Positions 967 to 55,981 of a DNA stretch of 64,000 nucleotides are shown one piece after another; positions within the stretch are counted from its first letter, which is position 1, and each line of letters begins with the position of its first letter. The stretch is from the NCBI GenBank assembly GCA_946613525.1, contig CAMOFO010000004.1, positions 17,925-81,924 on the forward strand, in the 5' to 3' direction. A program made the position numbers and the translations under genes. The DNA comes from an uncultured bacterium (lineage in GTDB: Bacteria; Bacteroidota; Bacteroidia; Bacteroidales; Bacteroidaceae). The notes below the pieces were generated by a model, which was given only the letters and a program-made list of their open reading frames with translations, searched no databases and was not told the DNA's origin.

Positions 967-1008
967 TTTTAACCTTTGACTTTTAACCTTTAACTTTTAA
1001 CCTTTAAC
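967..1008. repeat. Six alternating heptamers TTTTAAC/CTTTAAC spanning the stop codon of the C26-M19 gene
   Basis: ttttaac ctttgac ttttaac ctttaac ttttaac ctttaac. Confidence 0.9.
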
Positions 1009-2786
1009 TTCTGAGCCTCTTCCATCACGCGCAACCAGTTTCCACCCCAGATTTTACGGATGTCTTGCTCGCTGTACCTCCGGCGAAGCAGATGCATCGT
1101 GAAATTCAGCGCCTCAGACGCGTCGGCAAAGCCCGCGACACCGCCGTCGCCGTCGAAATCGGTGCCGATGCCCACGTGGTCGATACCCATCACCTTGATG
1201 GCGTGCTCCAGATGCGCGATGGCGTCAAGAATCGAGGCCTGTCCGTCTTTGCGGAGGAAGCCAGCGTAGAGTGTCGTGTGCGCCACACCACCCTTGGCCG
1301 CGAGTCGGCGCAGCTGGTCGTCGGTGAGGTTCCGCGGATGGTCGCACAGCGCCCGACAGTTCGAGTGGCTGCACACGATGGGCGTCTTGCTGATGTCAAG
1401 CGCATCGTAGAAGCTTTTTTCTGCCGCGTGGCTGAGGTCAACCATCACGCCGTGGCGGTTCATCTCGGCAATGACCTGCTCTCCGAACGGGCTCACTCCG
1501 CCATGCGTGTTGCTGCCGCGCGCCGAGTCGCAGATGTCGTTGTCGCCATTATGGCAGAGCGTGATGTAGGTCACGCCGCGCTGCGCAAATCGACCGACGT
1601 TTTCGAGCTCGTGCTCCAGCGCAAGGCCGTTTTCAATGGCCAAAACGATGGATTTCAGCCCCATTCGCTTGTTTTCACGGAGGTCGTCGGGCGTGCGGGC
1701 GAGAGCCAAATACGACTTCTGCTGCTCGACGATGGCTTCAATCTGGTCGAAAATGCCGTTGGCGTATGCATTGGGCGTGAGTCCGGCCAAATGCGGCGCG
1801 AGCGACGAGAATTCCTCGTCGGGCTTTGGCTGCGGCAGATAGGCCGCCATCGTAACGCTGTCTAAACGCCCGTCGGTCATCTTGTGCAAATCGACGAGAA
1901 TGCGCGGGTCGCGCTGTTCGAAATGAATGCCTTGCGGGAAGAACATCGGCGTGTCGCAATGGGTGTCGAGCGACAGGACTTTTTCATGTATCTTTTTGGC
2001 TTCGTGATAGTTACGAGCTTCTTCCACGAGCCATCGAAAGAGCTTCAGGCCCTCTTCCTCCAACCACTCCGGATGCCATTGCACGCCCAGAATCGGCTTG
2101 TGCTCGGTGCTTTCCATCGCCTCGATGGTGCCGTCGGGAGCCGTCGCCGTGACGCGGAATCGCCTCCCGGGGTCGTCAACGGCCTGATGGTGCAGCGAAT
2201 TCACGAAAATTCGGATTTTCTCCGTCGAATCGGCGTTTTGAGGCTTCTCGGAAGCGTAAATCTCCGCCAAGCGGCTGTCGGGTTCGATGCTCACGCTGTG
2301 CGTCGGCTCCGAGCGGTGGCCGTCTTGCGAGTGCTTGATGCTGCTGCGCTCGGAAATGTCTTGCGCAACGTGTCCGTCGAGTGCCATCGCGAGCGTCTGC
2401 ATTCCGCGGCAGATGCCGAAAATGGGAATCTGGCGGTTGTAGGCCAGGCGCGTGACGAGCAGCTCGGCCAAGTCGCGTCGCGCATTGATGCCGCCGAGCT
2501 TCGGAGCGGGTTCCTCGCCCGCCCACAGCGGGTTGTAGTCGGCACCGCCGCTGAGCAGCAGTCCGTCGAGCTGCTCCAACACACTGACAATCACGCTCTC
2601 ATCGGCCACGGGCGGAATGATGACGGGCGTGCCGCCAGCCCGCACCACCTGTTCGTAGTAGGGGTCGCGCAGGGCGGCGTCTTCGCCGGTGTGGTTGGCC
2701 GTGATGCCAATCAGCGGACGCGGCTCGGCTTCAGGAAATCTGGCGTAAATCGCCTGAAGATGCGATGGCAAGTCGAATTTCTTCAT
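990..2786 (-). CDS. Fusion of peptidase C26 (class I glutamine amidotransferase-like) and M19 membrane dipeptidase
   Basis: N-terminal half has GICRGMQ and GVQWHPE; C-terminal half has DTHCD, IENG, VDLSH, SHSN, GTDFDG. Confidence 0.9.
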   Translation of the reverse strand: MKKFDLPSHLQAIYARFPEAEPRPLIGITANHTGEDAALRDPYYEQVVRAGGTPVIIPPVADESVIVSVLEQLDGLLLSGGADYNPLWAGEEPAPKLGGINARRDLAELLVTRLAYNRQIPIFGICRGMQTLAMALDGHVAQDISERSSIKHSQDGHRSEPTHSVSIEPDSRLAEIYASEKPQNADSTEKIRIFVNSLHHQAVDDPGRRFRVTATAPDGTIEAMESTEHKPILGVQWHPEWLEEEGLKLFRWLVEEARNYHEAKKIHEKVLSLDTHCDTPMFFPQGIHFEQRDPRILVDLHKMTDGRLDSVTMAAYLPQPKPDEEFSSLAPHLAGLTPNAYANGIFDQIEAIVEQQKSYLALARTPDDLRENKRMGLKSIVLAIENGLALEHELENVGRFAQRGVTYITLCHNGDNDICDSARGSNTHGGVSPFGEQVIAEMNRHGVMVDLSHAAEKSFYDALDISKTPIVCSHSNCRALCDHPRNLTDDQLRRLAAKGGVAHTTLYAGFLRKDGQASILDAIAHLEHAIKVMGIDHVGIGTDFDGDGGVAGFADASEALNFTMHLLRRRYSEQDIRKIWGGNWLRVMEEAQKLKVKS

Positions 2787-3712
2787 TATTTTTCGTTTTC
2801 TTTCTCAATACCGATGAGTTCCACGGTGAAAATGAGCGTGGAGAAGGGCTTGATGGTGCCAGCCTGACGCTCGCCGTAGGCCAGTTCCTGCGGGATGTAG
2901 AGTTCCCACTTCGAGCCGACGGGCATCAGCTGCAGGGCCTCGGTCCAGCCTTTGATGACCTTGTCGCAGCGGAATTTCGAGGTTTGCGGATTGCGCTTGT
3001 AGGAGCTGTCGAACACGTTGCCGTCGATGGTTTTTCCTTCGTATTTCACCTCCACGGTCTGCTCCTTCGTCGGTTTTTCGCCCTCACCCATCGTGATGAC
3101 CTTGTATTGCAGGCCACTGGGCAGCGTCACCACGCCCTCTTTCTTGGCGTTTTCAGCAATCCACTGCTCGTTTTCGGCCTTGTAGGCTGCGTTCATAGCC
3201 TCTTTCACGGCTCTGCTCTTCGCTTCAAAATAGGCTTGGGCGGCGGAGTCGGTATAGACGCTGTTGTCGCCCGCGAGCGAGGCCACGAAGCCGCGGTGGA
3301 AAATCTCTTCGCTGATGGCTACGTCAGAACCCTCGAACTCTCCCTTCATGCTCGGCAGAATGCGCTGCTTGGCCATCTGTGCGATTTGCATTCCGGCGAG
3401 ATAGGCCACATACGCGGGGTCGTTTTCCTTCTTCGTGGCCTCTTGGAAGCCTTTCACGAAGTCGGCCATGTAGGCCGTATCGACCTTCATCGCCTGCTGT
3501 AGGTAGGGAATGAGGCCCTGCGTGGCCACTTTTCCAGCGGCGAAGCTCAACGAGTCGTTGGCCGAGGCCAGCACCACGGGTTGCTCTACACAGCAGTCGG
3601 AGACGGTGACCGTCTCCGATTGCTTTTTCTTGGTTTTCTTCTTGGCGGCGTCAGCCGTGCTCAGTGTTGCACTCAGCACGATTGCCGTTGCCAACAATGC
3701 GATTTTCTTCAT
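2786..3712 (-). CDS. FKBP-type peptidyl-prolyl isomerase, exported
   Basis: Signal peptide; SGLQY, YEG..IDG..FDSS, VIKGWTEAL, IPQELAYG. Confidence 0.92.
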   Translation of the reverse strand: MKKIALLATAIVLSATLSTADAAKKKTKKKQSETVTVSDCCVEQPVVLASANDSLSFAAGKVATQGLIPYLQQAMKVDTAYMADFVKGFQEATKKENDPAYVAYLAGMQIAQMAKQRILPSMKGEFEGSDVAISEEIFHRGFVASLAGDNSVYTDSAAQAYFEAKSRAVKEAMNAAYKAENEQWIAENAKKEGVVTLPSGLQYKVITMGEGEKPTKEQTVEVKYEGKTIDGNVFDSSYKRNPQTSKFRCDKVIKGWTEALQLMPVGSKWELYIPQELAYGERQAGTIKPFSTLIFTVELIGIEKENEK

Positions 3713-3733
3713 GATTCTGTGAATCTGTGATGA

Positions 3734-4643: not shown

Positions 4644-4684
4644 TTGATAATTGTTAATTGTTAATTGTTAATGTTAATTGAATT
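4644..4684. repeat. TTGTTAA heptamer array filling the gap between two FKBP genes
   Basis: ttgataa ttgttaa ttgttaa ttgttaa tgttaa ttgaatt. Confidence 0.85.
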
Positions 4685-5439: not shown

Positions 5440-6147
5440 ATGAAAAAACTTGTATTTTTGACCGGTGCAGGCATGTCGGTGGAGAGTGGTTTCAAGACCT
5501 TCCGAGGTGCCGGCGGACTGTGGGAAGACTTTCCCGTGGAACAGGTGGCGAGCCACGAAGGCTGGCTCACCGACCCTGTATTAGTGAACAACTTCTACAA
5601 TCGGTTGCGCAAAAAACTGTTCGAGGCACAGCCCAACGAAGGCCACAAGCTGATTGCCGACCTGCAACGCGACTTCGACGTGACGGTCATCACGCAAAAC
5701 GTTGATAACCTGCACGAAAAGGCAGGCTCAAAAAATGTGATTCACCTGCACGGCGAGCTCACGAAAGTGTGCTCTTCCGACGACCAATTCGACGAGCGAT
5801 ACGTGTGCAAGCTGACCGAAGACAACTGCGAGGTGGCCGAGGGCGAAAAGGCTGGCGACGGCTCGCTGCTGCGCCCGTTTATCGTGTTTTTCGGCGAGAG
5901 CGTTCCTATGATTGCACCCGCCGCCGAGAAGGTGGGCGAGGCCGACGTGCTCGTCATCATCGGCACGTCGCTCAACGTGTATCCCGCGGCCGGACTCGCC
6001 CACTACGTGAAGCCCGGCACGCCCATCTACCTCATTGACCCCGACGACGTGAGCACCAGCGGCATCCCCAACCTCACGCACATCCAAAAAGGAGCGAGCG
6101 AGGGAATGAAGGAATTCGCAGAGAAGGTTAAAGGGTTAAAGAGTTAA
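5440..6147 (+). CDS. cobB: SIR2-family NAD-dependent deacylase
   Basis: LTGAGMSVESG..TFR, TQNVDNLHE, HLHG, IGTSL; start placed at ATG 5440 (MKKLVF). Confidence 0.93.
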   Translation: MKKLVFLTGAGMSVESGFKTFRGAGGLWEDFPVEQVASHEGWLTDPVLVNNFYNRLRKKLFEAQPNEGHKLIADLQRDFDVTVITQNVDNLHEKAGSKNVIHLHGELTKVCSSDDQFDERYVCKLTEDNCEVAEGEKAGDGSLLRPFIVFFGESVPMIAPAAEKVGEADVLVIIGTSLNVYPAAGLAHYVKPGTPIYLIDPDDVSTSGIPNLTHIQKGASEGMKEFAEKVKGLKS

Positions 6148-6182
6148 AGGGTTAAAGAGTTAAAGGGTTAAAGAGTTAAAGG
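6127..6182. repeat. Seven perfectly alternating octamers GTTAAAGG/GTTAAAGA containing the cobB stop codon
   Basis: Read directly; TAA at 6145-6147 lies in unit 3. Confidence 0.95.
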
Positions 6183-6231
6183 GTGAATCCTTTCAAAGAA
6201 GTAATCATAATTTTAAATTTTAATTCCAAAT

Positions 6232-7326: not shown

Positions 7327-7331
7327 TTTCT

Positions 7332-7422
7332 TTCGAGGGTACGGCGGTCAGCCTCTTCGAGGCCGAGGGTGCGAGAATACTGTTCTCGCGCCTCCGTACC
7401 CACGCACCTCCGTACCTACGAA
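7332..7422. repeat. Intergenic inverted element built from GGTACG/GGTGCG octamer arms
   Basis: Left arm ttcgagggtacgg...gagggtgcgagaa, loop tactg, right arm ttctcgcgcctccgtacccacgcacctccgtacctacgaa. Confidence 0.8.
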
Positions 7423-7434
7423 TAACTTTTTGAA

Positions 7435-8202
7435 ATGACGATGACTATCAAGAAAATAAAAGCACCCCGCGAACTGCGGGCCGAAGACGTGCCTCAGCTC
7501 ATGCTGGCGCATCAGGTGAAATACGAGAAAGTGGCGTGTTTGAACTGGGCGGAGGCATTTCCCGTGCATCCGCAGATGGAAGTGGCAATGGCGCACACGG
7601 GCGACAATCTGCTGCTACACTATCGCGTGGAAGAAGACTGCATCCGTGCCGCTGCCGAGCAAGACGGTGGGCGCGTGTGGGAAGATTCGTGCTGCGAAAT
7701 CTTCCTGCAAGCCCCATCACCCATCACCCAACACTCAACACCCAACATCCAACACCCAACACCCAGCAAAAATAATCTCCCTTCCCCGAAGGGAGGGGCC
7801 GGGGTTGAGTCGCCTTACTTCAACCTCGAATGTAACTGCGCCGGAACGCTGCTCATCGCGAAAGGTCACGACCGTCACGACCGACAGCCGGCTCCGGAAG
7901 ATGTTCTGAAAAGTGTGGGTCGATGGTCGTCGCTGACCTCAGAAGCCACGCCGCAACCCAACGGACGCTACGTGCTACCCTTGGAAAACGGTGATTTCCA
8001 CTGGCACATGGCACTCGTGGTGCCCGCCACGGCACTGTTCGGCAGCGGCATCGACGATTTCTCGGGACTCACGCTGCGCGGCAACATTTATAAATGTGGT
8101 GACTGCCTGCGCGAGCCGCATTTCCTGTCGCTGTTTCCCATCGAGACGCCCCAGCCCGACTTCCATCGGCCTGAGTTCTTTCAAGAATTGAGGTTTGAGT
8201 GA
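7435..8202 (+). CDS. Carbohydrate-binding family 9-like protein carrying an in-frame repeat insertion
   Basis: VWEDSCCE, YFNLECNCAG, GNIYKCGD, PDFHRPEFF; overlaps the 3' end of convergent argH by 22 bp. Confidence 0.8.
   Translation: MTMTIKKIKAPRELRAEDVPQLMLAHQVKYEKVACLNWAEAFPVHPQMEVAMAHTGDNLLLHYRVEEDCIRAAAEQDGGRVWEDSCCEIFLQAPSPITQHSTPNIQHPTPSKNNLPSPKGGAGVESPYFNLECNCAGTLLIAKGHDRHDRQPAPEDVLKSVGRWSSLTSEATPQPNGRYVLPLENGDFHWHMALVVPATALFGSGIDDFSGLTLRGNIYKCGDCLREPHFLSLFPIETPQPDFHRPEFFQELRFE
7714..7811. repeat. Eight CCAACAC-type heptamers followed by a REP-like palindrome, in frame
   Basis: ccatcac ccatcac ccaacac tcaacac ccaacat ccaacac ccaacac ccagcaa, then ctcccttccccgaagggaggggccggggttgagtc (7777-7811). 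Confidence 0.9.
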
Positions 8203-9568: not shown

Positions 9569-9597
9569 CTGAACTCCTGAACTCCTGTAACTCCTCA
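9569..9597. repeat. CTGAACTC octamer array forming the argG-argH spacer
   Basis: ctgaactc ctgaactc ctgtaactc ctca; includes the argG TGA. Confidence 0.85.
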
Positions 9598-10824: not shown

Positions 10825-10897
10825 TTTTCTCTAAAATTTACGATTTTTCTTTATAAAAACATTTCTCTCTCGTTCCAAACTGTTATATTTTTGGCTG

Positions 10898-11029: not shown

Positions 11030-11033
11030 CAAC

Positions 11034-11189: not shown

Positions 11190-11196
11190 TATCCTT

Positions 11197-21724: not shown

Positions 21725-24700
21725 ATGAAAAAGATGATGCTTTTTGCTTGCGCCCTGCTGTTTGCAGTCACCACGCAGGCACAGTGGGACTTCAGCACTG
21801 ATACAGACTACTTACTGAAGCACGTCACGTCGGGCAAGTACCTGCTCTTGCACGATAGTTACGAAGAAACCAACCAAGTGAATGCCACAACGCTGGAAGG
21901 CGAAGGCTCGCTGTTCACCATCACGAAGAAAGGCAGCGGCTACGTGTTCACCAAAAAAGGCACGGAACTGACCTTGAGCCTCTCGACCAACGGTAAGTTT
22001 GCCGGATGGAACACCTCGAACAAGGGTGGCACCGCATGGACACTCGCCGATGCCGGCGACGACTGCGTCTATATCAAGTCGAGCAAAGGCTACCTCGCTC
22101 CCAACGACGGCGGCGGGGCTGGCGCGTATGTCTATACCGACAAGGGTGAAGGCAGCAACTCGAAGTGGCAAATCGTCGATGCTGTGGGCGAGCTCCCGAA
22201 CTACGTCAGCACCATCACCAGCGGCAAATACTACCGGCTGGTGAGCTACACGAACTCGGGAGTGTCGATGACCGACGGCGGCGGCGGACTGGTCACCTCG
22301 GCCAGCAGCAAGAAGAACTACAGCCAAGTATGGCTGCTGACTGCCAACGGCACGGGCTACAAGTTCCAGAACCTGCTCACCGGAAAGTACATCACAAGCG
22401 CACCCGGCACCAGCAACCAGTGGAAAACGGGCAACTCAGGTGCCACTTTCTACGTTGGAACATCGACCGCTGACGACAAGACGCTCTTCTTCTTCTCGAC
22501 AACGAAAAGCGGCAGCGGAGCCAATCCGAACACCTACGACGCCCTGCACTCCGCACCCCACCAGAGCAACAACGTGGTGGGATGGGTAGGCAACGCCGAC
22601 GCCTCGAAATGGATGTTGGACATGGTCGATGAAACCAAAATCGACTTCGACGCCATCCACGACCTGCAGCAGGCCGTGAATACCAACTATACCAACCAGC
22701 TGACGAACTTCTACGAAGACTACGCCTGCACACAGCTCAAGAGCGAATTCGCCTCGATGAGCGACGACGCACTGCGCGAGGCCATGAGTGCCCTGCCCTC
22801 CACACTGCGCGAGGAGGCCGTGCGCGTGAAGAACGACAAGTGGAACGACAACGCCACTTGGAACAAATACGAGAAAGACTTCCGCATCCACGACTATGAG
22901 GTCTATTCCGAACCCGGCGTCTGGGCCAACAAGCTCAGCCTCGGAGCCTTCGGGCGCCTCACCCAGCCCACGGGCATCCGCCTGAAGTCGGGCGACTTGG
23001 TGTTCCTGCACGTCAACGCCAATGTGGCCGACAGCGACGGACACCTCTATGCCGAACTGGTGTCGGGCGTGGATCTCTACGGAACACAAGTCACGCTGAA
23101 GCGCGGCTACAACGCTATCGTCGCATCCAACGACTGCGAAATCTTCATCACCTACAACTGCACGAACACAGAAAAGAAACTCTCGAACTATCCCAATATC
23201 AAGGTTCACATTGTCGGCGGCACGTGCAACGGCACCTTCGACATGAGTCGCGGCCACACCGAGAAGGACTGGAAGTGGCTCCTGCAGAATATGTTCAGCG
23301 ACACCTACCTGCACCTGCGCTCGCAGTACCACGTGATGAACTGCTACCTCGACCGCGTGAAAAACGCCGAGAACATGACGGGGGCACTGAAAATCTGGGA
23401 CTTCGTGTTCGAGAACCTCGAAAAACTCATGACCACGCGATTCAACGACGGCTATTACCGCCCGATTATGCTCGTGTTCGATGCCTCGGGCAATAATCCC
23501 AACTGGTCGTGGGGCCGCGTCTCCATGCCTGGAATGTGGGGCAACGGCGCACTCAACTACAACAGCCTGCTCTACACAGGCGGAGCTGGCGGACAACAGT
23601 GGGTCATCGAGCACGAGGAAGGCCATGGCCACCAGAATCCCATCAACCTCAGCGGAACCACTGAGGTCAGCAACAACGGTCTGGCACAGATCGTGAACCA
23701 CCTCTGGGGCTATCGTACCAGCCGTGGACGCGCCCAGCACCACACCTACGACTACTTCAACGAGGGTGTGGCTTGGGTCGATTACCCACGCCGACCCGAA
23801 TGCCTGTGGCTGACCAACAAACTGTGGTATCAGCTCTGGCTCTACTTCCACATGAAGGGCGACGACGGCTTCTTCGCACGCTGGATGGACAAGCTCCGCG
23901 CCATGGACGGCGGCATCAAGAAGGCCGGCGGCAACAACATCGCCCGCCAGACAGCCTCGCGCACCATCTCCGAACTGCAAGGAAAGACCAGCACATGGGG
24001 CAGCTGGACCAGCGAATACATGCGCATGGCACTGGCCGCCTGCGAAGCCTCGCAGACCGACCTCTACGAGTTCTTCAAGATGTGGGGATTCTTCGGCTTC
24101 TCCGACGAGGTGAAGACCACTGGAGACTTCGACGACACGAAGAACGGCATCTACCGCATCAGCGACTATTCCCACTTCTTCGTGCGTGTGCCCATCCGCG
24201 GCAACAAGGTCGATGAAGACGCCATCAAGTGGTGCAAGGACAAGATGCAGAGCTATCCTAACAAGGCTCCCGGCGCGATGTTCATCAACGACACGGGCGA
24301 ACTCACGCAAATCGACGCCGATGCCGAATGTCTGAAATACGACCCGAAACTGGCCGGCACCAAGCGGCAGTATGCCGACGGCGAATCCCAACAGAACCAA
24401 AACGGACTGGGCACCTACACCCACTTCGGCAAGAACGAGCTGACAACCCTGACCTTCAAGGTCAGCGGCACGAGAGTGATTGTCACGGGCAACGGCGCTG
24501 TGGGCTTCAAGATCTATGACGACAAGGGAGAACTCGTCTGGGTGAGCAACAGAAAATCATTCACGACGAACAGCACCATCGCCGAAGGCATCACCAACGG
24601 CACCTACTCGCTCGTGGCCTCGCTCGGCGACGACACCGACCTGCTGCTCAGCGGTCCTGAAACCGATTATGCCAAGAATGATCCGAATGGCATCAATACA

Positions 24701-27466: not shown

Positions 27467-27498
27467 TTCGGGGTTACGAAGGTGCGGAGGTACGAAAA
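27467..27498. repeat. Single purine-rich octamer arm between the CotH gene and argS
   Basis: ttcggggttacgaaggtgcggaggtacgaaaa; same family as 7332 and 29039. Confidence 0.7.
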
Positions 27499-27507
27499 AA
27501 TTAGATT

Positions 27508-37765: not shown

Positions 37766-38742
37766 GAATGATAGCAAACAATGGTGTTGCCATCGAACTG
37801 CTCGCGGCGGAACGCCGTGGCTGTTTCGGGGATTTTCGGGGAAAGAGTTGAAGGTTGAGGGTTGAGGGTTGAGGGTTGAAGGTTGAGGGCTTTTTCCACG
37901 CGGATTTCGTCCCAGAGATTTTTGTCGAGAAACGACTGGAGCGTTTCCCTGCCTCCCTCGACAATGAGCGACTGCAGCTGCTGCTCGCGGCATCGCTCAA
38001 AAAGTTCTTCTATTGTTCGACACTCATTTTCCGCCTCCATCATAGCCCCCTCTCCTCGAATTACAAACCTCACCGGATTTTTGCCCGCCCACTCCCTCAC
38101 ATTGAGTTGCGGATGCTCGCGCTCCCACGTGACGCGTCCCACGACGATGGCATCTTCCTCGGCGCGAAGCTTATGGACGAGCATTTTCGTGAACGGCGTA
38201 GAGATGGCGAGGGGGTTTCCGCAGTCGTCGAGGTAGCCGTCGGCGGTTTGCGCCCATTTCAGGATGATGTAAGGTCGGTTTTTCTCGTGGAAAGTGAAAA
38301 AACGGCGGTTTAGATGGCGACATTCCTTTTCGAGCACACCCACGACAACTTCGATGCCGGCATCACGAAGCCGTTTGACGCCGCGCCCCTGCACCTCGGC
38401 AAACGGGTCGATGCAACCCACGACGACGCGGCGAACACCCTTTCGGACGATGAGGTCGCTGCAGGGTGGCGTTTTCCCGTGGTGCGAGCAGGGTTCGAGC
38501 GACACGTAGAGCGTGGCCTCGGGCAGCAGTTTTTCGTCGTCGGCGCTCACCGACGCAAAGGCGTTCACCTCGGCGTGGCCCTCGCCACAGCGCACGTGGT
38601 AGCCCTCGCCCAGAATCCGCCCGCCGGCCACGATCACACAGCCCACCATCGGATTCGGTCGCGACAGGTTTCGTCCGCACGCCGCCAGTTGGATGCAGCG
38701 TCGCATGAATTTTTCGTCAGTCAACGTTTGTGATTTCTCCAT
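37762..38742 (-). CDS. ribD: Bifunctional riboflavin deaminase/reductase
   Basis: PNPMVG, HAEVNA, LEPCSHHGKTPPC, LKWAQTADG, IVEGG; start placed at ATG 38742. Confidence 0.95.
   Translation of the reverse strand: MEKSQTLTDEKFMRRCIQLAACGRNLSRPNPMVGCVIVAGGRILGEGYHVRCGEGHAEVNAFASVSADDEKLLPEATLYVSLEPCSHHGKTPPCSDLIVRKGVRRVVVGCIDPFAEVQGRGVKRLRDAGIEVVVGVLEKECRHLNRRFFTFHEKNRPYIILKWAQTADGYLDDCGNPLAISTPFTKMLVHKLRAEEDAIVVGRVTWEREHPQLNVREWAGKNPVRFVIRGEGAMMEAENECRTIEELFERCREQQLQSLIVEGGRETLQSFLDKNLWDEIRVEKALNLQPSTLNPQPSTLSPKIPETATAFRREQFDGNTIVCYHS
37847..37888. repeat. Six GTTGAGG/GTTGAAG heptamers (42 nt) in frame in ribD
   Basis: Encodes LNLQPSTLNPQPST. Confidence 0.95.
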
Positions 38743-38761: not shown

Positions 38762-39793
38762 ATGACTTACCGCGAACTCTGTCAGCGGCTGGCCTCGGTC
38801 TATGACATGGACGAGGCTCGCGCCGTGGTCCGCCTGCTTCTCGGCGAGCGATTCGGCTTGTCGATGGCCGACATTTTGTGCGACAAAGTTACGGAATTAT
38901 CGGCAGACGACCGCACGGAATTGGAAAAAATGATGCGTCGGCTTGAAAATGGCGAGCCCGTGCAGTATGTGCTGGGCTATGCCACGTTCTGCGGTCGGCG
39001 CTTTCGCGTGACTCCCGACGTGCTGATTCCACGGCCAGAAACCGAAGAACTTTGCCAATGGCTGATCTCGGGAGTTCAGGAGTTCGGGAGTTCAGGAGTT
39101 CAGGAGAAATCTCACTCCACACTCCACACTCCACGCTCCACACTCCTCACTCCTCACCCCTCACTCCACACTCCTCACTCCTCACTCCACACTCCACACT
39201 CCACACTCCTCACTCCACACTCCTCAATATTAGACATCGGAACGGGCAGCGGCTGCATTGCCGTGACACTGGCGGCGGAGTGGCCCGAGGCGCAGGTATC
39301 GGCATGGGACATTTCCGAAAAAGCCCTGAAAATCGCGCGGGAGAATGCGGAGCGGAACGGCGCAAATGTTGATTTCGAGCAAGTCGATATCCTAAACCCA
39401 TTCAACCCTCAACCCTCAACCCTCAACATTCAACACCTAACACCCAACACCCAACACCCAACACTCAACACCCAGCACCCAACCTTCAACATTCTCATCA
39501 GCAACCCGCCCTACGTTTGCGAGAGCGAGAAAGCAGCGATGGAACGGAACGTGCTGCAACACGAGCCGCACTTGGCGCTCTTCGTGCCCGACGACGACCC
39601 TCTGCGCTTCTATCGCGCCATCGCCGAGTATGCCCGCCACGCGCTGAAGCCCAACGGATGGCTGTTTTTTGAAATCAACCCTGCGTATGCCGACGACATC
39701 GTGCAGATGCTGCAAGAAATGCAGTTCGAACAAGTGACGCTGAAAACAGATTCGTTTGGAAAAAAGCGGTTTTTAAGAACTAAAATCAAATAA
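38762..39793 (+). CDS. prmC: Release factor glutamine methyltransferase with two large repeat insertions
   Basis: EPVQYVLG, VLIPRPETEEL, LDIGTGSGCIA, ISNPPY, EPHLALF, FFEIN. Confidence 0.95.
   Translation: MTYRELCQRLASVYDMDEARAVVRLLLGERFGLSMADILCDKVTELSADDRTELEKMMRRLENGEPVQYVLGYATFCGRRFRVTPDVLIPRPETEELCQWLISGVQEFGSSGVQEKSHSTLHTPRSTLLTPHPSLHTPHSSLHTPHSTLLTPHSSILDIGTGSGCIAVTLAAEWPEAQVSAWDISEKALKIARENAERNGANVDFEQVDILNPFNPQPSTLNIQHLTPNTQHPTLNTQHPTFNILISNPPYVCESEKAAMERNVLQHEPHLALFVPDDDPLRFYRAIAEYARHALKPNGWLFFEINPAYADDIVQMLQEMQFEQVTLKTDSFGKKRFLRTKIK
39071..39226. repeat. 4.5 GGAGTTCA octamers followed by 16 C(A/T)CACTC heptamers, in frame in prmC
   Basis: Counted directly: octamers 39071-39106, heptamers 39111-39222. 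Confidence 0.97.
39402..39492. repeat. 13 TCAACCC/CCAACAC heptamers in frame in prmC
   Basis: Counted directly; lies just before NPPY. Confidence 0.97.
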
Positions 39794-46841: not shown

Positions 46842-47714
46842 CTATTGCAGGTCGATGTGCTGCGCGAAGATTTTCTGCTGAAGGAAGATTCGGGCACTTT
46901 CCTGGAATTTTTCAGGGTTTTCGGTGGTGAAATAGCGTGTTTGACCGTTTTTCGTACAGTGTTTTTCGATTTCAGGATGCCGCTGCAAGTAGTTTTCAAG
47001 GCTCTCGGCCACGTAGTGTCCCTGCGAGATGATTTCTACGCCATCGGGAATATGACTCTTGATTTTCGGCAGCAAGAGCGGATAGTGGGTGCAGCCGAGG
47101 ATGACGGCATCGATTTTCGGGTCTTGCCCCATGAGTTGGTCGATGCGTTTCTTGACGAAATAGTCGGCGCCCGACGAGTTGGCCTCGCCAGCCTCTACGA
47201 TGGCTGCCCAGAGCGGACAGGCCACGCTGGTGAGTTGGATGTCGGGAAAGAATTTCTGGATTTCAAGCTGATAGCTCTCGCTACGCACGGTGCCTTCGGT
47301 GGCGAGCAGGCCCACGTGGCGCGTCTTCGTTTTCTGGCCGATGATTTCCGCCGTGGGACGGATGACGCCGAGGACACGACGAGGAAGTTGAGAGTTGAAA
47401 GTTGAGAGTTGAAAGTTTTCGGCTGAATTGGATTCTAATAGCGGAAGATCGTGCTGCTGGATGGTGCGCAGGGCCTTGGCCGAGGCCGTGTTACAGCCGA
47501 GAATGACCAAGTGGCAACCCATTTCGAAAAGTCTCAAAACGGCCTGGCGGGTGAACTGATAGACCACCTCGAAGGAGCGGCCACCGTAGGGCGCACGGGC
47601 GTTGTCGCCCAGATAGAGATAGTCGTATTCGGGCAGTCGGCTGCGGATGCTGTCGAGCACGGTCAGGCCTCCGTAGCCAGAGTCGAAAATGCCGATGGGA
47701 CCCGTCGCTGTCAC
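46842..47714 (-). CDS. murI: Glutamate racemase
   Basis: IGIFDSGYGGLTV, GCNTAS, LGCTHYP; GTG start overlaps the upstream TGA. Confidence 0.95.
   Translation of the reverse strand: MTATGPIGIFDSGYGGLTVLDSIRSRLPEYDYLYLGDNARAPYGGRSFEVVYQFTRQAVLRLFEMGCHLVILGCNTASAKALRTIQQHDLPLLESNSAENFQLSTFNSQLPRRVLGVIRPTAEIIGQKTKTRHVGLLATEGTVRSESYQLEIQKFFPDIQLTSVACPLWAAIVEAGEANSSGADYFVKKRIDQLMGQDPKIDAVILGCTHYPLLLPKIKSHIPDGVEIISQGHYVAESLENYLQRHPEIEKHCTKNGQTRYFTTENPEKFQESARIFLQQKIFAQHIDLQ
47387..47417. repeat. Four alternating GTTGAGA/GTTGAAA heptamers in frame in murI
   Basis: Encodes NFQLSTFNSQ. Confidence 0.9.
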
Positions 47715-49305: not shown

Positions 49306-49388
49306 ATTCTTTTCGTTTTATGGATTACACGTTTTGTTTGACTTTCTCCGAGTCTAAAAGTTGCTATTTGTTTCAGATTATTAACAAT

Positions 49389-49420
49389 TCAACACCTCAA
49401 CATTCAACCCTCAACATTCA
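49389..49420. repeat. TCAACAT/TCAACCC heptamers beginning at the bamA stop codon
   Basis: tcaacacc tcaacat tcaaccc tcaacat tca. Confidence 0.8.
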
Positions 49421-52114
49421 AAACTCTTGTCCGAGAATAAAGTGGAAGTGCGAGCCGCCACGCTTCAGATTGCGGTCTTGGTAGATTTTGTCGAAGCCGT
49501 AGGCCCAGTCGATACCCATCAGACCGACCATCGGCAGGAAGATGCGCACGCCGATGCCTGCCGAGCGTTTCATGTTGAAGGGATTGAATTTCTTCGCGTC
49601 GGCCCACGCGTTACCGCCTTCGAGGAAGGCCAGTCCATAGATGGTGGTGTTACCGAGCATGAAGGGATAGCGCAGTTCGAGCGTGAAGCGGTCGTAGGCG
49701 TAGGCGTTGTAGTAGCTGCTCGTGCCGGCCTCGAAGGCTGCGGTGTTCGAGATGGAGCCGTTTTCATAGCCGCGCAGTCCGATGGTTTCCTCGGCGTAGC
49801 CATAGCTGTAGCCGCTCATGCCGTCGCCACCCACGTAGAAGGTCTCGAAGGGCGATTTCTTGTACTGGTTATAGGCTCCGAGGAGACCGAACTCCACGCG
49901 CGTCATCAGCACCAAGGGCTTCGCGCCTCGCGTGAGTGCCGTGAAGGTGCGTCCCTTGAACTTCCATTTGTGGTATTCAATCCAGCGATATTTCTCTTGT
50001 TGCTCTTGCGAATAGGTGGCCGAATAGGGGTTGTTGGCCAGATTCTTGTAGTCTTTCTTGTCCCAGAGCGACCATGGCGGCGTGAGCTGCACCGAGGCCG
50101 TGAACTCCGAGCCGCTGCGCGGGAAGAGCGGGTTGTCGGTAGAGGAGCGGCTGAGCGAGAGGTTCAGGCTGATGTTGTTGGCGTTTCCGTTGCTCATGAT
50201 GGCGAAATATTGCCAGTTTTTGAGCGAGTAGCGCGTGAAGGAGAGCTGGGCCGAGAGGAAGAAATAGTCGTCGGGCCAGCGCAGTCGCTTACCCCATCCG
50301 AGCGTTACGCCGTAGAGCTTGATGTATTTGTCGGGGTCGTAGTAGTTTTCGTAGTTGTTGTAATAATAGTTGTTGCCGTAGCCATAGAGCATATTCATAT
50401 AGTTGTTCATATAGCCGCTGTTGTAGTAGGAGCTCGACACGTCGGTCTGCTTCGAAAAGAACGCGCTCACGGAGAACTGGATGGGGCGCTTGTTGCCGAA
50501 CCAGTTGGTGGAGTAGCTCGCGTTGTACGACTGGTAATAGCGTCCGTTGGTCTGCGCATTGATGCCGAGCGTTTCGCCGTCGCCGATGGGCATGATGCCG
50601 CGGTGTTCCTTGTTCTTGTTGAAGAGGTTGGCCATCGAGAAGTTGTTGAGCTTCAGACCCACGCGTCCGATGATGCCCGTCTGTCCCCATCCGAGCGAGA
50701 ACTCGACTTGGTCGTTCGATTTCGACTCCAGATTCCAGTTGATATCGACCGTGCCGTTCTCGCCATTGGGCTTTACATCAGGCTCCATTTTCTCGGGGTC
50801 GAAATGTCCCGACGAGGCAATTTCACGCGCCGAACGCATCAGTGCGTCCCTTGAGAAGAGGTCGCCGGGCTTGGTGCGCAGCTCGCGGCGGATGACGTTC
50901 TCGTAGAGGCGGTCGTTGCCGTTGATGCGCACGCGGTTGATGTAGGCCTGCGGGCCTTCGGAAATGCGCACTTCGAGGTCGATGGAGTCGCCCTCGGTCT
51001 TGATTTCAGTGGGTTGGATTTGGCAGAAGAGGTAGCCGTTGTTCCAATATTCGTTGCTGATGGCGTCTTCGTCGGAATGGAGGCGACTATTCAGCAGTTT
51101 CTGGTTATAGACGTCGCCCTTCTTCATGTCGAGCACGCGCACGAGGGCATCGGTGGGATAAACCGTGTTGCCCACCCACGAAATGTTTCTAAGGAAATAT
51201 TTCTGGCCCTCATCCACCTTCACATACACGTTCACATGCTTCGGGTCCACCGTCCACACGCTGTCTTCCACAATCATGGCATCGCGGAAGCCCATTTCAT
51301 TGTACTTATCCAAGAGGCTTTTCTTGGCCTCTTTCCAACGCTCGGGCGTGAATTTCTTGGCCTTGAAAAGGGTGGCGAGCTTGCCGGCCTCGTTCACTTT
51401 CCCCAGCGCGCCTTTTTTGAACAGTCCGCCCTTGATTTTCTTGTCGGGGAGTTGGTCGTTGCCCTCGATGATGATGCTGCGCACCTTCATTTTCTCCTTT
51501 TTGTCGATGACGATGTCGAGAATCACCTTGTTTTTCTCTGCCACGTCGTCGCGCTGCATCACGTCGATTTCAGCGTTTTGGAAGCCCTTGTCGTCGAAAT
51601 ATTTCTTGGCGAGCAGCTTGGCGCGGTCGAGCACGTTGGGATGGATGCTCATGCCGCTGGTGAGGCCGAGTTTCTTCTCAAGGTCGTCGCGCTCCGACTT
51701 CTTGATGCCCACGTAGTTGATTTGCGACACGCGCGGCCGTCCGGCCAGTGCCACGTGCAGATAGATGCGGTTGCCCACGATGGAATCGGCGGAAATCGAC
51801 ACCTCGGAGAAGAGTCCGTGGCGCCAATAGCGCTTCACGGCATCGGTGATTTGCGAGCCCGGCACCTCAATTTCCTGTCCTACGGTGAGACCCGAGATGC
51901 CCGCAATGGCATAGTCTTCGTAGCCGTCCATGCCCGAGATGTTGATGCCTCCGAGGACGTAGGTGCGCGGCGTGCCAGCATAGGTGATGTCGGGGTATTC
52001 GATGACATCCTGGGCTCTCAAAGTGAAAAGTGAAGAGTGAAAAGTGAACAATGCCAGGAGCACGATTCCTTTCCACGTGTCGCTTTTCTTTCTACTTTCT
52101 AAGATATATCTCAT
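49418..52114 (-). CDS. bamA: Outer membrane protein assembly factor BamA
   Basis: POTRA repeats, VIRRELRTKPG, LRGYEN, C-terminal FHFILGQEF; start placed at ATG 52114. Confidence 0.95.
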   Translation of the reverse strand: MRYILESRKKSDTWKGIVLLALFTFHSSLFTLRAQDVIEYPDITYAGTPRTYVLGGINISGMDGYEDYAIAGISGLTVGQEIEVPGSQITDAVKRYWRHGLFSEVSISADSIVGNRIYLHVALAGRPRVSQINYVGIKKSERDDLEKKLGLTSGMSIHPNVLDRAKLLAKKYFDDKGFQNAEIDVMQRDDVAEKNKVILDIVIDKKEKMKVRSIIIEGNDQLPDKKIKGGLFKKGALGKVNEAGKLATLFKAKKFTPERWKEAKKSLLDKYNEMGFRDAMIVEDSVWTVDPKHVNVYVKVDEGQKYFLRNISWVGNTVYPTDALVRVLDMKKGDVYNQKLLNSRLHSDEDAISNEYWNNGYLFCQIQPTEIKTEGDSIDLEVRISEGPQAYINRVRINGNDRLYENVIRRELRTKPGDLFSRDALMRSAREIASSGHFDPEKMEPDVKPNGENGTVDINWNLESKSNDQVEFSLGWGQTGIIGRVGLKLNNFSMANLFNKNKEHRGIMPIGDGETLGINAQTNGRYYQSYNASYSTNWFGNKRPIQFSVSAFFSKQTDVSSSYYNSGYMNNYMNMLYGYGNNYYYNNYENYYDPDKYIKLYGVTLGWGKRLRWPDDYFFLSAQLSFTRYSLKNWQYFAIMSNGNANNISLNLSLSRSSTDNPLFPRSGSEFTASVQLTPPWSLWDKKDYKNLANNPYSATYSQEQQEKYRWIEYHKWKFKGRTFTALTRGAKPLVLMTRVEFGLLGAYNQYKKSPFETFYVGGDGMSGYSYGYAEETIGLRGYENGSISNTAAFEAGTSSYYNAYAYDRFTLELRYPFMLGNTTIYGLAFLEGGNAWADAKKFNPFNMKRSAGIGVRIFLPMVGLMGIDWAYGFDKIYQDRNLKRGGSHFHFILGQEF
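52022..52049. repeat. Four AGTGAA(A/G/C) heptamers encoding part of the BamA signal peptide
   Basis: agtgaaa agtgaag agtgaaa agtgaac; encodes LFTFHSSLFT. Confidence 0.9.
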
Positions 52115-52133
52115 AGCTGTTATTTTTCGTTTT

Positions 52134-52886
52134 TCACTTTTCGTTTCCTTCCACCTGCGCCTCGGTCTTTCCGAAACGACGCTGGCGGCTCTGGAAGCTT
52201 TCGATGGCCTTGTGCAGGTCGGCTTCGGCGAAGTCGGGCCAGTAGGTGTCGCAGAAATAGAGCTCGGAATAGGCGATTTGCCAGAGCAGATAGTTCGAGA
52301 TGCGCAACTCGCCACCCGTGCGGATGAGCAGGTCGGGGTCGGGCATGAAGCGCGTCTGCAAGTGCTGGGCGACGGTTTCCTCGGTGATGTCTTTGGGGAA
52401 GAGTCCACCCGTTTTCAGGAATTTTGTCGTTCCAAGCGAGTCGTGGACTTCCGCCACGATTTCCCTGACGGCCTCGGCAATTTCCCAACGGCTTGAGTAG
52501 CTCAGCGCCACCACCATTGTCATAGTGTCGTTTCCGGCAGTGTGTTCCTCGGTTTCGCGCAGTTTCTGCTGCACGTCGTCGGGCAGTCGCTTCATGTCGC
52601 CGATGACGCGGAATCGCACGTTGTGCTTCATGAAAATCTCGTCTTCGAGCGAGGTCAGCACGAGTCCCATCAGGGCCGACACCTCGTCGGCAGGACGGTT
52701 CCAGTTTTCCGTCGAGAAGGTGTAGAGCGTGAGGTATTTCACGCCCAGCCGCACACATTCGGCGGTGATTCGCCGCACGGTTTCCACGCCGGCCTGATGT
52801 CCGGCATTGCGGGGCATTCCCTTCTCGGTGGCCCAGCGTCCGTTGCCGTCCATGATGATGGCGATATGTTCGGGTATTTTCTTCAT
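52134..52886 (-). CDS. uppS: Undecaprenyl diphosphate synthase
   Basis: [40 protein letters not shown]. Confidence 0.97.
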
Positions 52887-54970: not shown

Positions 54971-55003
54971 CAAGAGAAAAAATGGTTATAGTGTGTTATG
55001 ATG

Positions 55004-55894
55004 CTAATCTCTCAGGCGATGAAGCAACTCGGCAGGCAGCGCGGGCATGGCGCCGTTTTGCGTGCAGACGTAGGCCGAGACCTCGACTGCGAGCTCATGG
55101 GCTTCGGCGATGCTTTTTCCGCTGAGGATGGCCGAACAGAACGAGCCCGTAAACGAGTCGCCGGCGCCCACCGTGTCGGCCACTTGCACCTTGGGCGTTT
55201 CGCGGAAGAACATCTGGCCCGGGGCGAACACATACGAACCGTTGGTGCCGCAGGTGAGCACGAGCATATCCAGATTGTATTTGCCAAGGATGAGCCAGCA
55301 TTTGTTTTCCATGTCGAGACCCGGATAGCCAAACATCCGACCGATAATAACGAGTTCTTCATCGTTGATTTTCAGCACGTTACAGCGTTGCATCGACTCT
55401 TGAATCACCTCGCGCGTGTAGAAATTCTGCCGCAGGTTGATGTCGAAGATTTTCATGCAGTCTTTCGGTGTGGCATCGAGGAAACGATGGATGTTTTCGC
55501 GCGACACGACGTTGCGCTGCGCCAGCGAACCGAAGCACACGGCACGGCAGTTGCGGGCTGCCTCCTCGATTTCGGGCGTGAAGGGAATGTTGTCCCAGGC
55601 CACGTTTTCGCGGATGTCGTAAGTGGGAATGCCCTGTTCGTCGAGCGTCACCTGCACGGTGCCCGTGGGATAAGGCACGCGCGGCATCAGGTAGCGCAAC
55701 TGGTGTTCTTCGAGGGCTACGATGGTTTCTTCGGCGAGTTTGTCCTCTCCGAGCGCACTCACGGCCAGCGCATTGTCTTGTCCGAGGAACTGGCCTGCGT
55801 GATAGGCGAAGTTGGCTGGTGCTCCGCCGAGTTTCTTTCCTTCGGGCAGCACGTCCCAGAGTGCTTCGCCGAGGCCTACTACTAATTGTTTCAT
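55004..55894 (-). CDS. PfkB-family fructokinase
   Basis: GEALWD, GGAPANFA, FDINLR, DTVGAGDSF; fructan PUL context. Confidence 0.92.
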   Translation of the reverse strand: MKQLVVGLGEALWDVLPEGKKLGGAPANFAYHAGQFLGQDNALAVSALGEDKLAEETIVALEEHQLRYLMPRVPYPTGTVQVTLDEQGIPTYDIRENVAWDNIPFTPEIEEAARNCRAVCFGSLAQRNVVSRENIHRFLDATPKDCMKIFDINLRQNFYTREVIQESMQRCNVLKINDEELVIIGRMFGYPGLDMENKCWLILGKYNLDMLVLTCGTNGSYVFAPGQMFFRETPKVQVADTVGAGDSFTGSFCSAILSGKSIAEAHELAVEVSAYVCTQNGAMPALPAELLHRLRD

Positions 55895-55912
55895 ATTTTC
55901 TAAAGGGTTTTT

Positions 55913-55981
55913 AAGGGGAGTGAAAGGGGAGTGAAGGGGACGAATGTCTGAACTTCTGAAACACCTGTAACTCCTGAACTA
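55913..55981. repeat. Composite intergenic repeat (AAGGGGAGTGA x2-3 plus CTGAACT-type octamers)
   Basis: aaggggagtga aaggggagtga aggggacgaa tgt ctgaactt ctgaaacac ctgtaactc ctgaacta. Confidence 0.8.

Follow-up and report, generated by a model that had tools for sequence, protein, structure and literature searches.

Dispersed 7/8-nt tandem repeats and their strand polarity relative to transcription in a sheep-gut Bacteroidota genome

The STRR heptamers of heterocystous cyanobacteria, which Mazel et al. are said to have described in 1990, reportedly form several dispersed tandem families, mostly non-coding and of unknown function; to our knowledge, gene-end polarity and in-frame colonisation are not part of the original description. 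In Xanthomonas and Nostoc, the GGGAATC and GGGGA(C/T)T (GGGGAYT) repeats occur as tandem heptamer arrays at hundreds of dispersed sites; these arrays vary in copy number, are over-represented between co-oriented ORFs and have the G-rich strand as coding strand within 50 bp after stop codons (overlap with the stop included) and as non-coding strand just upstream of starts (Rehm 2015, PMC4692102). The TAACTGA direct repeats of Beggiatoaceae, cyanobacteria and five Bacteroidetes are intergenic and lie in a fixed 'forward' orientation a few nucleotides upstream of start codons; the unit contains stops, occurs in Bacteroidetes beside other heptamer repeats and is missing from the same junction in close relatives, and a role as post-transcriptional regulator has only been proposed (MacGregor 2015, PMC4679880). 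In addition, the 23S rRNA IVS of Coxiella burnetii forms a long stem from its inverted flanks, with an S23p-family ORF in the loop, and RNase III cleaves this stem (Warrier et al. 2016, PMC4990558).

Below we report 7/8-nt arrays in a sheep-gut Bacteroidota draft genome (82.5% complete), with a gene set of 1705 genes from a home-made ORF caller in which start codons are least certain. Overall, TRF (period 7 or 8, at least 3 copies) returns 417 rows in the genome versus 8 in a genome-sized 5th-order Markov simulation, and the merged arrays number 399, with 92 on a stop, 30 on a start only, 155 in CDS and 122 intergenic; 92 of 1665 gene stops fall within an array. The canonical units, 7 or 8 nt long, number at least 115; a TTGA/TCAA core is common to them, and the commonest of them (AAATTGT, ATTGAAC-type and AATTAAG) have no G runs. 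The arrays belong to the STRR / long-SSR / 'GGGAATC-type' kind known in cyanobacteria, Xanthomonas, Beggiatoaceae and some Bacteroidetes. They resemble the STRR in having several dispersed tandem heptamer families, while phylum and units are different. Repeats of this kind, with the same polarity, have already been published from Xanthomonas and Nostoc (Rehm 2015, PMC4692102), the likeness being in dispersed tandem arrays and G-rich-after-stop polarity; however, many units take the place of one here, few arrays are G4-capable, 39% of the arrays are in frame inside genes, and start-proximal arrays are A+C-rich and not simply antisense in their G-rich strand. Intergenic heptamers with fixed orientation and stop-bearing units are shared with the TAACTGA repeats, but TAACTGA is not among the 60 commonest units and the strongest positional preference is at and after stop codons. 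As in the Coxiella IVS, S23p ORFs are bracketed by complementary arms (3 of 3 clear copies here and 5 of 5 examined in relatives); unlike it, the cassettes lie between protein-coding genes and not in 23S rRNA, their stems are tandem 7/8-mers, and most arrays have neither S23p nor a partner arm.

In the window, which is the whole 64,000-nt stretch analysed, genes were named by Pfam and sites were taken from TRF and direct reading of sequence and translation:

967..1010, strand -: (GGTTAAA/AGTTAAA)n holding the Peptidase_C26-M19 stop (990-992), the last 6 residues KLKVKS being array-coded (TRF, translation, Pfam)
4644..4680, strand -: (TTAACAA)n filling the 40-nt spacer from the stop at 4683 to the next ATG at 4642 (TRF, sequence)
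6126..6184, strand +: (GGTTAAAG/AGTTAAAG)n holding the cobB (SIR2) stop (6145-6147), with the array-coded tail KVKGLKS (TRF, translation, Pfam)
7332..7422, no strand assigned: two-armed element that follows the stop at 7326 and precedes the ATG at 7435, with the G-rich octamer arm first and the complementary C-rich arm second
7713..7765, strand +: in-frame (CCCAACA/CCCATCA)n splitting a CBM9_2 domain, the sense strand being the stop-free one (TRF, Pfam)
9569..9595, strand -: (CAGGAGTT)n from the argG TGA (9595) to 2 nt short of the next ATG (TRF, sequence)
24698..24731, strand +: in-frame array in an M60-like peptidase gene, on the TTGA-bearing strand, with TCA replacing the would-be in-frame TGA (TRF, Pfam)
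27467..27500, strand +: lone G-rich octamer arm (GGTRCGRA-type) between the stop at 27459 and the argS ATG at 27508 (sequence)
29039..29138, strand +: in-frame two-armed element in argS, G-rich arm and then C-rich ACCCCCGA arm (TRF)
37847..37889, strand -: in-frame (CCTCAAC)n in ribD, the sense strand being the stop-free one (TRF)
39071..39491, strand +: in-frame inserts in prmC, (GGAGTTCA)4.5 and then (CACTCCA)16, later (TCAACAC/CCAACAC)13 (TRF, Pfam)
47385..47417, strand -: in-frame (TCAACTY)n in an Asp/Glu racemase (murI-like) gene (TRF, Pfam)
49387..49421, strand -: (GTTGAAT/GTTGAGG)n beginning at the bamA TGA (49418) (TRF, sequence)
52020..52048, strand -: in-frame (TTCACTT)n that encodes the hydrophobic stretch LFTFHSSLFT in the signal peptide of BamA (TRF)
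52123..52146, strand -: weak 3-unit purine-rich run at the uppS stop (52134), TRF score 34 (TRF, sequence)
55913..55978, strand -: purine-rich (TTCAGGAG-like)n arm abutting the MFS TAG (55979) and C-rich (CCCCTTCACT)n arm before the ATG at 55894

Six of these genes had been cited as having their stops inside, or at the beginning of, purine-rich arrays. The stops at 990 and 6145 are indeed inside an array and the TGAs of argG and bamA are its first bases, while the MFS stop abuts its array and the uppS run is weak. Rewritten C-termini hold for two of the six, C26-M19 and cobB: the BamA C-terminus (...GQEF) is native, its last residue being the end of the Omp85 profile (Pfam), and the uppS tail resembles those of its orthologs and looks native. 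For cobB, nine orthologs have variable tails, without an array at the corresponding place. Purine-rich arms, said to follow three further stops, are G-rich at 7326 and 27459, and that at 41333 has only about two units; C-rich arms do precede the ATGs at 7435 and 55894, but at 4642 the sense strand of (TTAACAA)n is A-rich, G-free and predicted to be structure-free (RNA fold MFE 0 kcal/mol). The in-frame arrays of ribD, prmC, murI, bamA and the CBM9_2 gene are all on the stop-free strand, as had been stated. The layout seen in the M60-like gene recurs about 89 nt ahead of the stop in at least 6 genes. At the place of (TTCACTT)n, BamA orthologs have ordinary signal peptides, and a similar array is present in two relatives. 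RNA folding gives -47.6 kcal/mol (z = -4.9) for the element at 7332..7422, -45.1 kcal/mol (z = -6.2) for that in argS and z = -4.2 for the first prmC insert; no significant fold is found for the G-rich arm at 27467..27500, and the two arms at 55913..55978 are non-complementary (z = -0.8).

On the whole, the arrays and their strand rule relative to transcription are real. Downstream of stops, the mRNA-sense strand is shown to be A/G-rich, usually with a TTGA or TTAA core, and in translated arrays the strand used is shown to be the complementary TCAA-type. The sense strand of stop-overlapping arrays is purine-rich in 78 of 90 and flips with the gene strand, also on the same contigs (Fisher p = 9e-13, where arrays of one genome, like those of kin genomes, are non-independent observations), and the polarity is repeated in 5 related species (R:Y 22:8). 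Random orientation of purely intergenic arrays had been named as the outcome that would speak against the rule; it is non-random, with A>T 70:21 in strictly intergenic co-directional arrays and, near stops, R 32:8 and G>C 30:12, compared with 0.55-0.65 (A>T) and 0.45-0.51 (G>C) in array-free spacers. The switch of G and C by position is significant for all arrays (Fisher p = 7.5e-7) and for strictly intergenic ones (p = 0.002). The other half of the rule, pyrimidine-rich arrays before starts, does not hold in general: R:Y is 44:27 over all start-proximal arrays and 29:24 among the strictly intergenic ones, and in the latter A+C-richness (39:11, with A>T 36:14) is the consistent property instead. 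By predicted folding, lone arrays are almost structure-free in either orientation. In stop-proximal arrays the sense RNA has slightly more structure than the antisense RNA (30:7), so the polarity is not accounted for by a tendency to avoid RNA structure.

Two-array spacers with opposite skew have the G-rich arm before the C-rich arm in 14 cases and the reverse in 1, in accordance with the original prediction, and all 8 clear S23p (PF05635) genes examined agree, with a 5' arm that is rich in purines and complementary to the 3' arm. Several of these spacers fold strongly (z -3 to -8). To say 'relative to transcription' adds nothing for complete elements, because a hairpin of G-arm and then C-arm reads identically on either strand. 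An inverted partner (at least 2 units, within 1.5 kb) is found for only 34 of 399 arrays, thus the hairpin architecture is a minority. In a crude duplex test of the S23p arms, 2 of 8 cases are clearly significant.

It is very unlikely that arrays originate in random orientation and that purifying selection on reading frames alone makes the apparent rule. CDS arrays do use the stop-free strand almost without exception (CAGGAGTT 13:1, AACTCTC 12:0), and where the TTGA strand is translated TCA stands in place of an in-frame TGA; however, the stop-free unit AACACCC is still 14:0 in CDS, and after stops, units that carry a stop on each strand (R:Y 56:8) are just as polar as those with a stop on neither (11:0). 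Strictly intergenic arrays are polar too, and genome-wide CDS arrays show no pile-up of read-through arrays at C-termini, only 3 being within 30 nt of a stop. ORF filtering is therefore an incomplete explanation. Arrays as selected all-frame stop cassettes, kept for ending translation in every frame and remodelling C-termini, as had been proposed, are hardly more probable. That they close reading frames is borne out, for all three sense frames are closed in 65% of after-stop arrays (within a median 34 nt) versus 6% of array-free 35-nt stretches after stops, a stop-bearing array closing every frame within three units, as neither 7 nor 8 is a multiple of 3, and 92 genes end in an array, about 53 of the proteins with an array-coded tail of 1-11 residues (4-34 nt). 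Yet arrays with a sense-strand stop are as frequent as base composition predicts (127 observed and 121.8 expected after stops; 36 and 38.4 in strictly intergenic arrays), which gives no sign of stops as a selected feature; a sense stop is lacking from 35 of the 162 arrays that follow stops, the polarity is independent of stops in the unit, the tails of BamA and uppS are native as noted, and 45 of 92 arrays begin at the native stop, against one third expected from random phase, which points to avoidance of tail change. The stop codons in arrays look like a by-product and not the purpose of the repeats. Unlikely as well is that the orientation is set by translation initiation, in which SD-less Bacteroidota mRNAs would need A-rich unstructured sequence before starts. 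This agrees with initiation in Flavobacterium, tuned by mRNA structure and upstream adenines (Baez et al. 2019, PMC6847099), with array-free spacers before starts that are already A-rich and G-poor (A 0.41, G 0.15), with the A+C-rich start-proximal arrays and with the structure-free array ahead of ATG 4642; but the bias near starts is little above background (78% vs 63%), the sense and antisense MFE there do not differ significantly (26:19), and G-richness after stops and in convergent spacers is left unexplained.

An origin at the DNA level can be considered, though we doubt it: a hairpin cassette with S23p but without a transposase (G-arm, cargo, C-arm), of fixed chirality, would insert at gene boundaries, the arrays would be its arms, or single arms where it has decayed, and polarity would be inherited, not selected in RNA. 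The bracketing of the S23p genes by arms made of each species' own common unit (for example ATTGAAC in G008) and the chirality of two-array spacers favour this, as do S23p copies tracking array density (rho 0.90 in 6 kin, hence non-independent, genomes) and two cargo-less copies that have a common 78-nt core with 91% identity. However, with chirality alone, lone arms in co-directional spacers should be purine-sense as often as pyrimidine-sense, where 154:46 is observed, and divergent spacers run counter to the prediction, being purine-rich 15:4 and G>C 12:7 on the nearest gene's sense strand; moreover, only 3-4 S23p genes are present for 399 arrays, and neither insertion-site duplications nor a mobility enzyme were found. 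An origin at the RNA level, hinted at in the original prediction, receives no direct support, the sole reverse transcriptase in the genome being retron-like. Least credible, to the point of being highly improbable, are G-quadruplex regulators as proposed for the GGGNATC repeats of Xanthomonas and Nostoc. Units such as GGGTTAAA and ACGGAGGT-type have sense G runs after stops, and polarity and location agree with Rehm et al. (PMC4692102), but the canonical motif (four G3+ runs with 1-7-nt loops, either strand) is present in only 29 of 399 arrays and the commonest units are without G runs.

With moderate confidence, then, we regard the arrays as genus-wide, fast-changing 7/8-nt repeats whose overlap with stops is passive and whose residual polarity most likely comes from a transcript-level constraint or function. 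Arrays differ between strains by whole units, another strain having an extra heptamer at 988 (C26-M19 array) and an extra octamer at 9568 (argG array); such units would be gained and lost by slippage, and the arrays would be kept at gene borders with a constant orientation towards the transcript. As stop-bearing arrays close every frame within three units, they can abut or replace the last few codons (up to 34 nt here) without harm, and stop-codon overlap would be a permissive consequence of this. Survival of the opposite strand would be confined to genes, in which it codes for P/T/S/Q/H-rich linkers or for signal peptides. The RNA runs consist of short contigs, none bridging arrays. As to the mechanism behind the polarity, we infer that what exceeds ORF filtering most likely acts on the transcript: the arrays may be elements of transcribed UTRs or intercistronic stretches and supply the arms of IVS-like hairpins that RNase III, which is present in this genome, could cleave.

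Dispersed arrays of tandem heptamer or octamer units are far more frequent in this genome, a 2.1-Mb draft in 69 contigs with 53% G+C and 82.5% completeness, than chance would give. Over the whole genome the TRF search returns 361 period-7 and 214 period-8 rows; the 417 rows with at least three copies merge into 399 arrays, while a fifth-order Markov simulation of equal size yields only 8 such rows. At least 115 canonical units are in use, the ten commonest making up roughly 40% of the arrays. Genes were called with our own ORF caller, which scores by codon log-odds, resolves overlaps greedily and makes a further pass to pick up long ORFs; it finds 1705 genes, assigns 92% of the genome to coding sequence, and is reliable for stops but less reliable for starts. 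Despite this coding density, 244 of the 399 arrays are located outside coding sequences or at their edges: 122 are intergenic, 83 lie on a stop codon, 30 on a start codon and 9 on both, and the remaining 155 are within coding sequences. Among the relatives, the non-coding and edge positions take 57 of 59 arrays. The counts by position come from home-made gene calls with uncertain start codons on a draft genome, and arrays of one unit family, as well as genomes of one genus, are non-independent samples.

The window (C4:17925-81924) encodes, according to Pfam, BamA, M60-like peptidases and a SusD/RagB protein, and SusD is a marker that assigns it to Bacteroidota; near-identical DNA is present in sheep-gut metagenomes, and an Rfam search of the window gives no match, rRNA or other. 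Pfam also upholds every gene name of the original prediction, namely Peptidase_C26 plus M19, SIR2 (cobB), argininosuccinate synthase (argG), POTRA plus Omp85 (bamA), undecaprenyl-diphosphate synthase (uppS), MFS_1, CBM9_2, PrmC, Asp/Glu racemase (murI) and RibD. The stop codons of C26-M19, cobB, argG, bamA, uppS and the MFS gene had been placed inside or at the beginning of an array, which holds for the former four. The C26-M19 and cobB stops sit within (GGTTAAAG-type)n arrays, which encode the last 6-7 residues (KLKVKS and KVKGLKS), and in argG and bamA the first trinucleotide of the array is the TGA stop. The MFS array, however, only adjoins the stop (55979), beginning directly 3' of TAG, and at the uppS stop (52134) there is a weak run of three units. 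As for arms, the G-rich ones expected 3' of stops are found after those at 7326 and 27459, with a marginal one at 41333; the C-rich ones expected 5' of ATGs are found at 7435 and 55894, but not at 4642, which is preceded by (TTAACAA)n, A-rich and G-free. In ribD, prmC, murI, bamA and the CBM9_2 gene, the strand translated in the in-frame arrays is always the one free of stops, as had been stated, and gives peptides rich in P/T/S/Q/H/N, or hydrophobic in BamA.

On the whole, the orientation of the arrays follows that of the genes. Stop-overlapping arrays have a purine-rich sense strand in 78 of 90 cases, and the polarity reverses with the gene strand (purine-rich to pyrimidine-rich 37:8 for plus-strand genes and 4:41 for minus-strand genes, Fisher p = 9e-13). 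Because the orientation flips with gene strand inside the same contigs, both kinds being present on 11 contigs, a replication-strand effect is ruled out. The after-stop units that carry a stop trinucleotide on both strands are purine-sense by 56:8, though either orientation ends an ORF, and those with stops on neither strand by 11:0. Only 3 arrays within coding sequences lie within 30 nt of the stop, such arrays being evenly distributed along genes, and the missing pile-up before stops argues against random orientation at 3' ends with read-through of stop-free arrays. Purely intergenic arrays, on whose orientation the original prediction had been made to depend, are polar rather than random: arrays touching no called gene in co-directional spacers show an excess of A over T on the sense strand by 70:21. 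With these controls, the gene-linked polarity is shown to exceed what ORF filtering can produce.

The bases that carry the polarity differ between the two gene ends. Near stops, G exceeds C on the sense strand by 65:11 in all arrays and 30:12 in strictly intergenic ones (purine-rich to pyrimidine-rich 68:9 and 32:8, respectively). Array-free spacers have a milder A-over-T bias of the same sign (0.55-0.65) and no G excess (0.45-0.51), therefore the G-richness after stops (65:11, background 0.48, p = 1e-11) is specific to arrays. Near starts, whose calls are uncertain, C exceeds G by 35:30 in all arrays and 33:20 in strictly intergenic ones, the latter being A+C-rich rather than G+T-rich by 39:11. 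From a G excess near stops, the arrays thus change to nearly equal G and C near starts, a significant difference (p = 7.5e-7, or 0.002 for strictly intergenic arrays). Stated accurately, the rule gives a sense strand rich in A everywhere, rich in G following stops, and poor in G and A+C-rich ahead of starts. The earlier wording, pyrimidine-rich before starts, fits only some arrays, those at 7435 and 55894 among them, and not the arrays in general (strictly intergenic, purine-rich to pyrimidine-rich 29:24). Purine content as the sole axis was rejected as well; it fits after stops, but before starts A+C content and the excess of A over T describe the arrays better.

As had been proposed, the arrays physically act as all-frame stops, since 65% of after-stop arrays close the three sense frames, at a median of 34 nt. 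The antisense strand does so in 44%, and among array-free 35-nt stretches that follow stops 6% do. Nevertheless, the stop codon does not look like the selected feature: 127 arrays with a sense stop are observed where 121.8 are expected with unit letters shuffled, and among strictly intergenic arrays 36 against 38.4. A TTGA or TTAA core is enriched about threefold (95 observed, 31 expected), and TTGA/TCAA is the most enriched tetramer in all 399 units (120 against 36). Related species have other units with the same core, such as ATTGAAC and AAGAATTG in G008, a related species of the same genus. Among the 92 stop-overlapping arrays, 39 start at most 3 nt from the stop codon while the others extend 4-34 nt into the ORF; the stop falls in the first unit in 45 of them, against one third by random phase (p = 0.003), and this excess suggests that tail changes are avoided. 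The claim that arrays rewrite C-termini was compared with orthologs and stands in part. It holds at C26-M19 and cobB, with the tails KLKVKS and KVKGLKS, respectively, array-coded; the nine cobB orthologs have variable tails of 4-14 residues after a conserved GASEGM(K/R)E and arrays in none, and the array here took the place of a non-conserved tail. It fails at uppS and BamA, whose tails are native: the 30 uppS loci, including that of this genome, share the same acidic or lysine-rich tail type, so there is no rewriting at uppS, and the BamA C-terminus is the last Omp85 profile position with the usual C-terminal Phe.

Array length and location vary between strains and species. A strain about 98% identical over the window, from a DNA run on another sample, is longer by exactly one heptamer at 988 and by one octamer at 9568, showing slippage by whole units. 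Contigs from other runs frequently end at arrays, and X13 and X14, the only RNA runs in which the window occurs, give short contigs over gene bodies of the window with the arrays unbridged. In five related species (1.2 Mb sampled) the array density is 22-133 per Mb, compared with 189 here; their arrays are in non-orthologous places and keep the polarity (purine-rich to pyrimidine-rich 22:8, A over T 21:8).

In-frame arrays account for 155 of 399 (39%) here, including those in argS, prmC, murI, ribD and bamA, and for 1 of 59 in the relatives (loci L048-L107, 1.2 Mb). In bamA, (TTCACTT)n encodes the hydrophobic core of the signal peptide (window 52020-52048); two related species (loci L025 and L042) have a similar array in the same place, and in most the signal peptide is ordinary. 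At window 24698-24731 and in at least five other genes, a TTGA-type heptamer array is located 88-97 nt 5' of the stop. The six genes have very different lengths, and every third unit has TTCA for the expected TTGA, which keeps the frame open; the arrays probably mark a shared C-terminal domain of secreted proteins. A protein search at E <= 1e-50 in 40 further genomes of the genus finds no ortholog of argG (window 9595-10824), which suggests that the argininosuccinate synthase of the window is of another argG type or was recently acquired. ORFs with negative codon-usage scores are present at window 10825-13160, 29417-29986, 34096-37765 and 41334-42700, and these stretches, atypical for the genome in composition, may be recently acquired DNA.

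There are 26 spacers with two arrays, and on the plus strand the order is G-rich then C-rich in 14 and the reverse in 1, in every gene-orientation context. The proposed order of arms is thus borne out, but not its definition relative to transcription; being identical on both strands, the G-then-C order expresses the chirality of the element itself, irrespective of transcription direction. Strong hairpins are predicted for 7327-7434 (z = -4.9), for the element in frame within argS (z = -6.2) and for others with z from -3 to -8; further pairs, such as that at 55895-55978 (z = -0.8), are not complementary. An inverted partner of two units or more is present within 1.5 kb for only 34 of the 399 arrays, with the purine arm on the left in 9 close pairs versus 5, and this search is a less clear measure than the G/C skew of two-array spacers. 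Some elements contain a gene of S23p (PF05635), the 23S-rRNA-IVS protein family, and others have no cargo.

S23p genes and related elements in this genome (G000)
C18:14774-15206, S23p gene between protein-coding genes, by profile search
C26:5439-5887, S23p gene between protein-coding genes, by profile search
C29:~20000-20600, S23p gene between protein-coding genes, by profile search
C65:1068-1192, cargo-less hairpin element with arms (GTTGAAT)n and (TTCAAMM)n
C19:3754-3882, second copy of this element, with the same arms and a 78-nt core at 91% identity
C28:18201-18363, element of the same build with a different core

PF05635 has three matches above cut-off and one weak match in this genome; this concerns 3 cassettes and not the 399 arrays. 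Each clear S23p gene has a purine- or G/T-rich array 5' and a complementary array 3', and the five clear copies examined in four relatives are all bracketed alike, with arms made of the species' own common unit. A crude and noisy duplex z-score for S23p arms with wide flanks is strong in 2 of 8 and informative in 2-3 of 8. The S23p copy number rises with array density over six genomes (rho 0.90), which is weak evidence since these genomes are kin. A gene for RNase III is encoded in the genome.

The units thus have a common core, the two-armed elements a fixed chirality, and the S23p cassettes their bracketing arms; the polarity would be either imposed at the transcript level or inherited from a polar hairpin element. 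The latter, a cassette origin in which the fixed chirality of the element is passed on to the arrays, is the main rival. Chirality alone predicts purine-sense and pyrimidine-sense lone arms in equal numbers, but the data give 154:46; in divergent spacers it would make the sense strand rich in C, but there the counts are 12:7 in the opposite way. A constraint at the transcript level is therefore favoured as what would cause the polarity. For start-proximal arrays, the orientation might be set by the A-rich leader of SD-less Bacteroidota (PMC6847099), an idea with little support, as its fit is weakly above background. Avoidance of RNA structure is not supported, the arrays being nearly structure-free both ways, with a near-start trend that is not significant and a near-stop trend in the wrong direction. 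An origin by reverse transcription was rejected, the single RVT_1 gene being retron-like and distant from both the arrays and the S23p genes. This sole reverse transcriptase (C3:3432-4298, locus L108:1315-2181) has the retron St85 family as its best NCBIfam match, below cut-off. Beyond the favoured transcript-level constraint, an improbable wider reading joins the arrays and the S23p four-helix-bundle genes into one system, a transposase-free, RNA-linked seeding of repeats across at least one Bacteroidota genus. The cassettes would be its source, or S23p a binding factor, and the transcript-polar TTGA-core family would spread to gene boundaries, give intercistronic processing stems and UTR elements, and, in this species, have colonised even essential genes as translated linkers.

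Similar repeats are known elsewhere. GGGAATC/GGGGAYT repeats were reported on the coding strand at most 50 bp after the stop, stop overlap included, and on the non-coding strand at most 50 bp upstream of ORFs (Rehm et al. 2015, PMC4692102). The arrays here are alike in being dispersed far above chance, in their excess at gene ends, in their G-rich sense strand after or over the stop, and in copy number differing between strains by whole units. Unlike those repeats, they have no general G-quadruplex unit with a four-unit preference, and G-quadruplexes are rejected as a general explanation, the canonical motif being found in 29 of 399 arrays. Heptamer repeats oriented forward upstream of starts were described in several genomes, Bacteroidetes included (MacGregor 2015, PMC4679880), but their TAACTGA is absent from the 60 commonest canonical units here, where TTGA/TCAA is common instead. 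In Coxiella, an intervening sequence (IVS) carrying S23p is excised by RNase III (PMC4990558). The cassettes here likewise have a PF05635 ORF inside the element, with complementary arms at C18, C26, C29 and five loci of relatives, but are located between protein-coding genes and not in helix 25 or helix 45 of 23S rRNA. Contingency repeats of phase variation, which are located in or before surface or adaptive genes and switch expression by unit change, do not match: the in-frame arrays here are in the housekeeping genes argS, prmC, murI, ribD and bamA, where a one-unit change would frameshift an essential gene, and the strain indels observed lie 3' of stops. To our knowledge, comparable heptamer and octamer arrays have been on record since 1990 from several phyla, with no function established.

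The polarity itself is already published for other heptamers, and this genome is a well-documented further case. New here are controls by which polarity proper is told apart from ORF filtering, the absence of stop enrichment, a TTGA core that is conserved, and an in-frame colonisation that is unusually heavy in this one species. With a polarity that survives the controls, stops that are not selected and a chirality linked to S23p, a transcript-level constraint or a polar origin remain. For annotation, about 5% of the genes end in repeat-coded residues and about 150 have in-frame repeat inserts, and both gene callers and ortholog alignments must allow for such tails and inserts.
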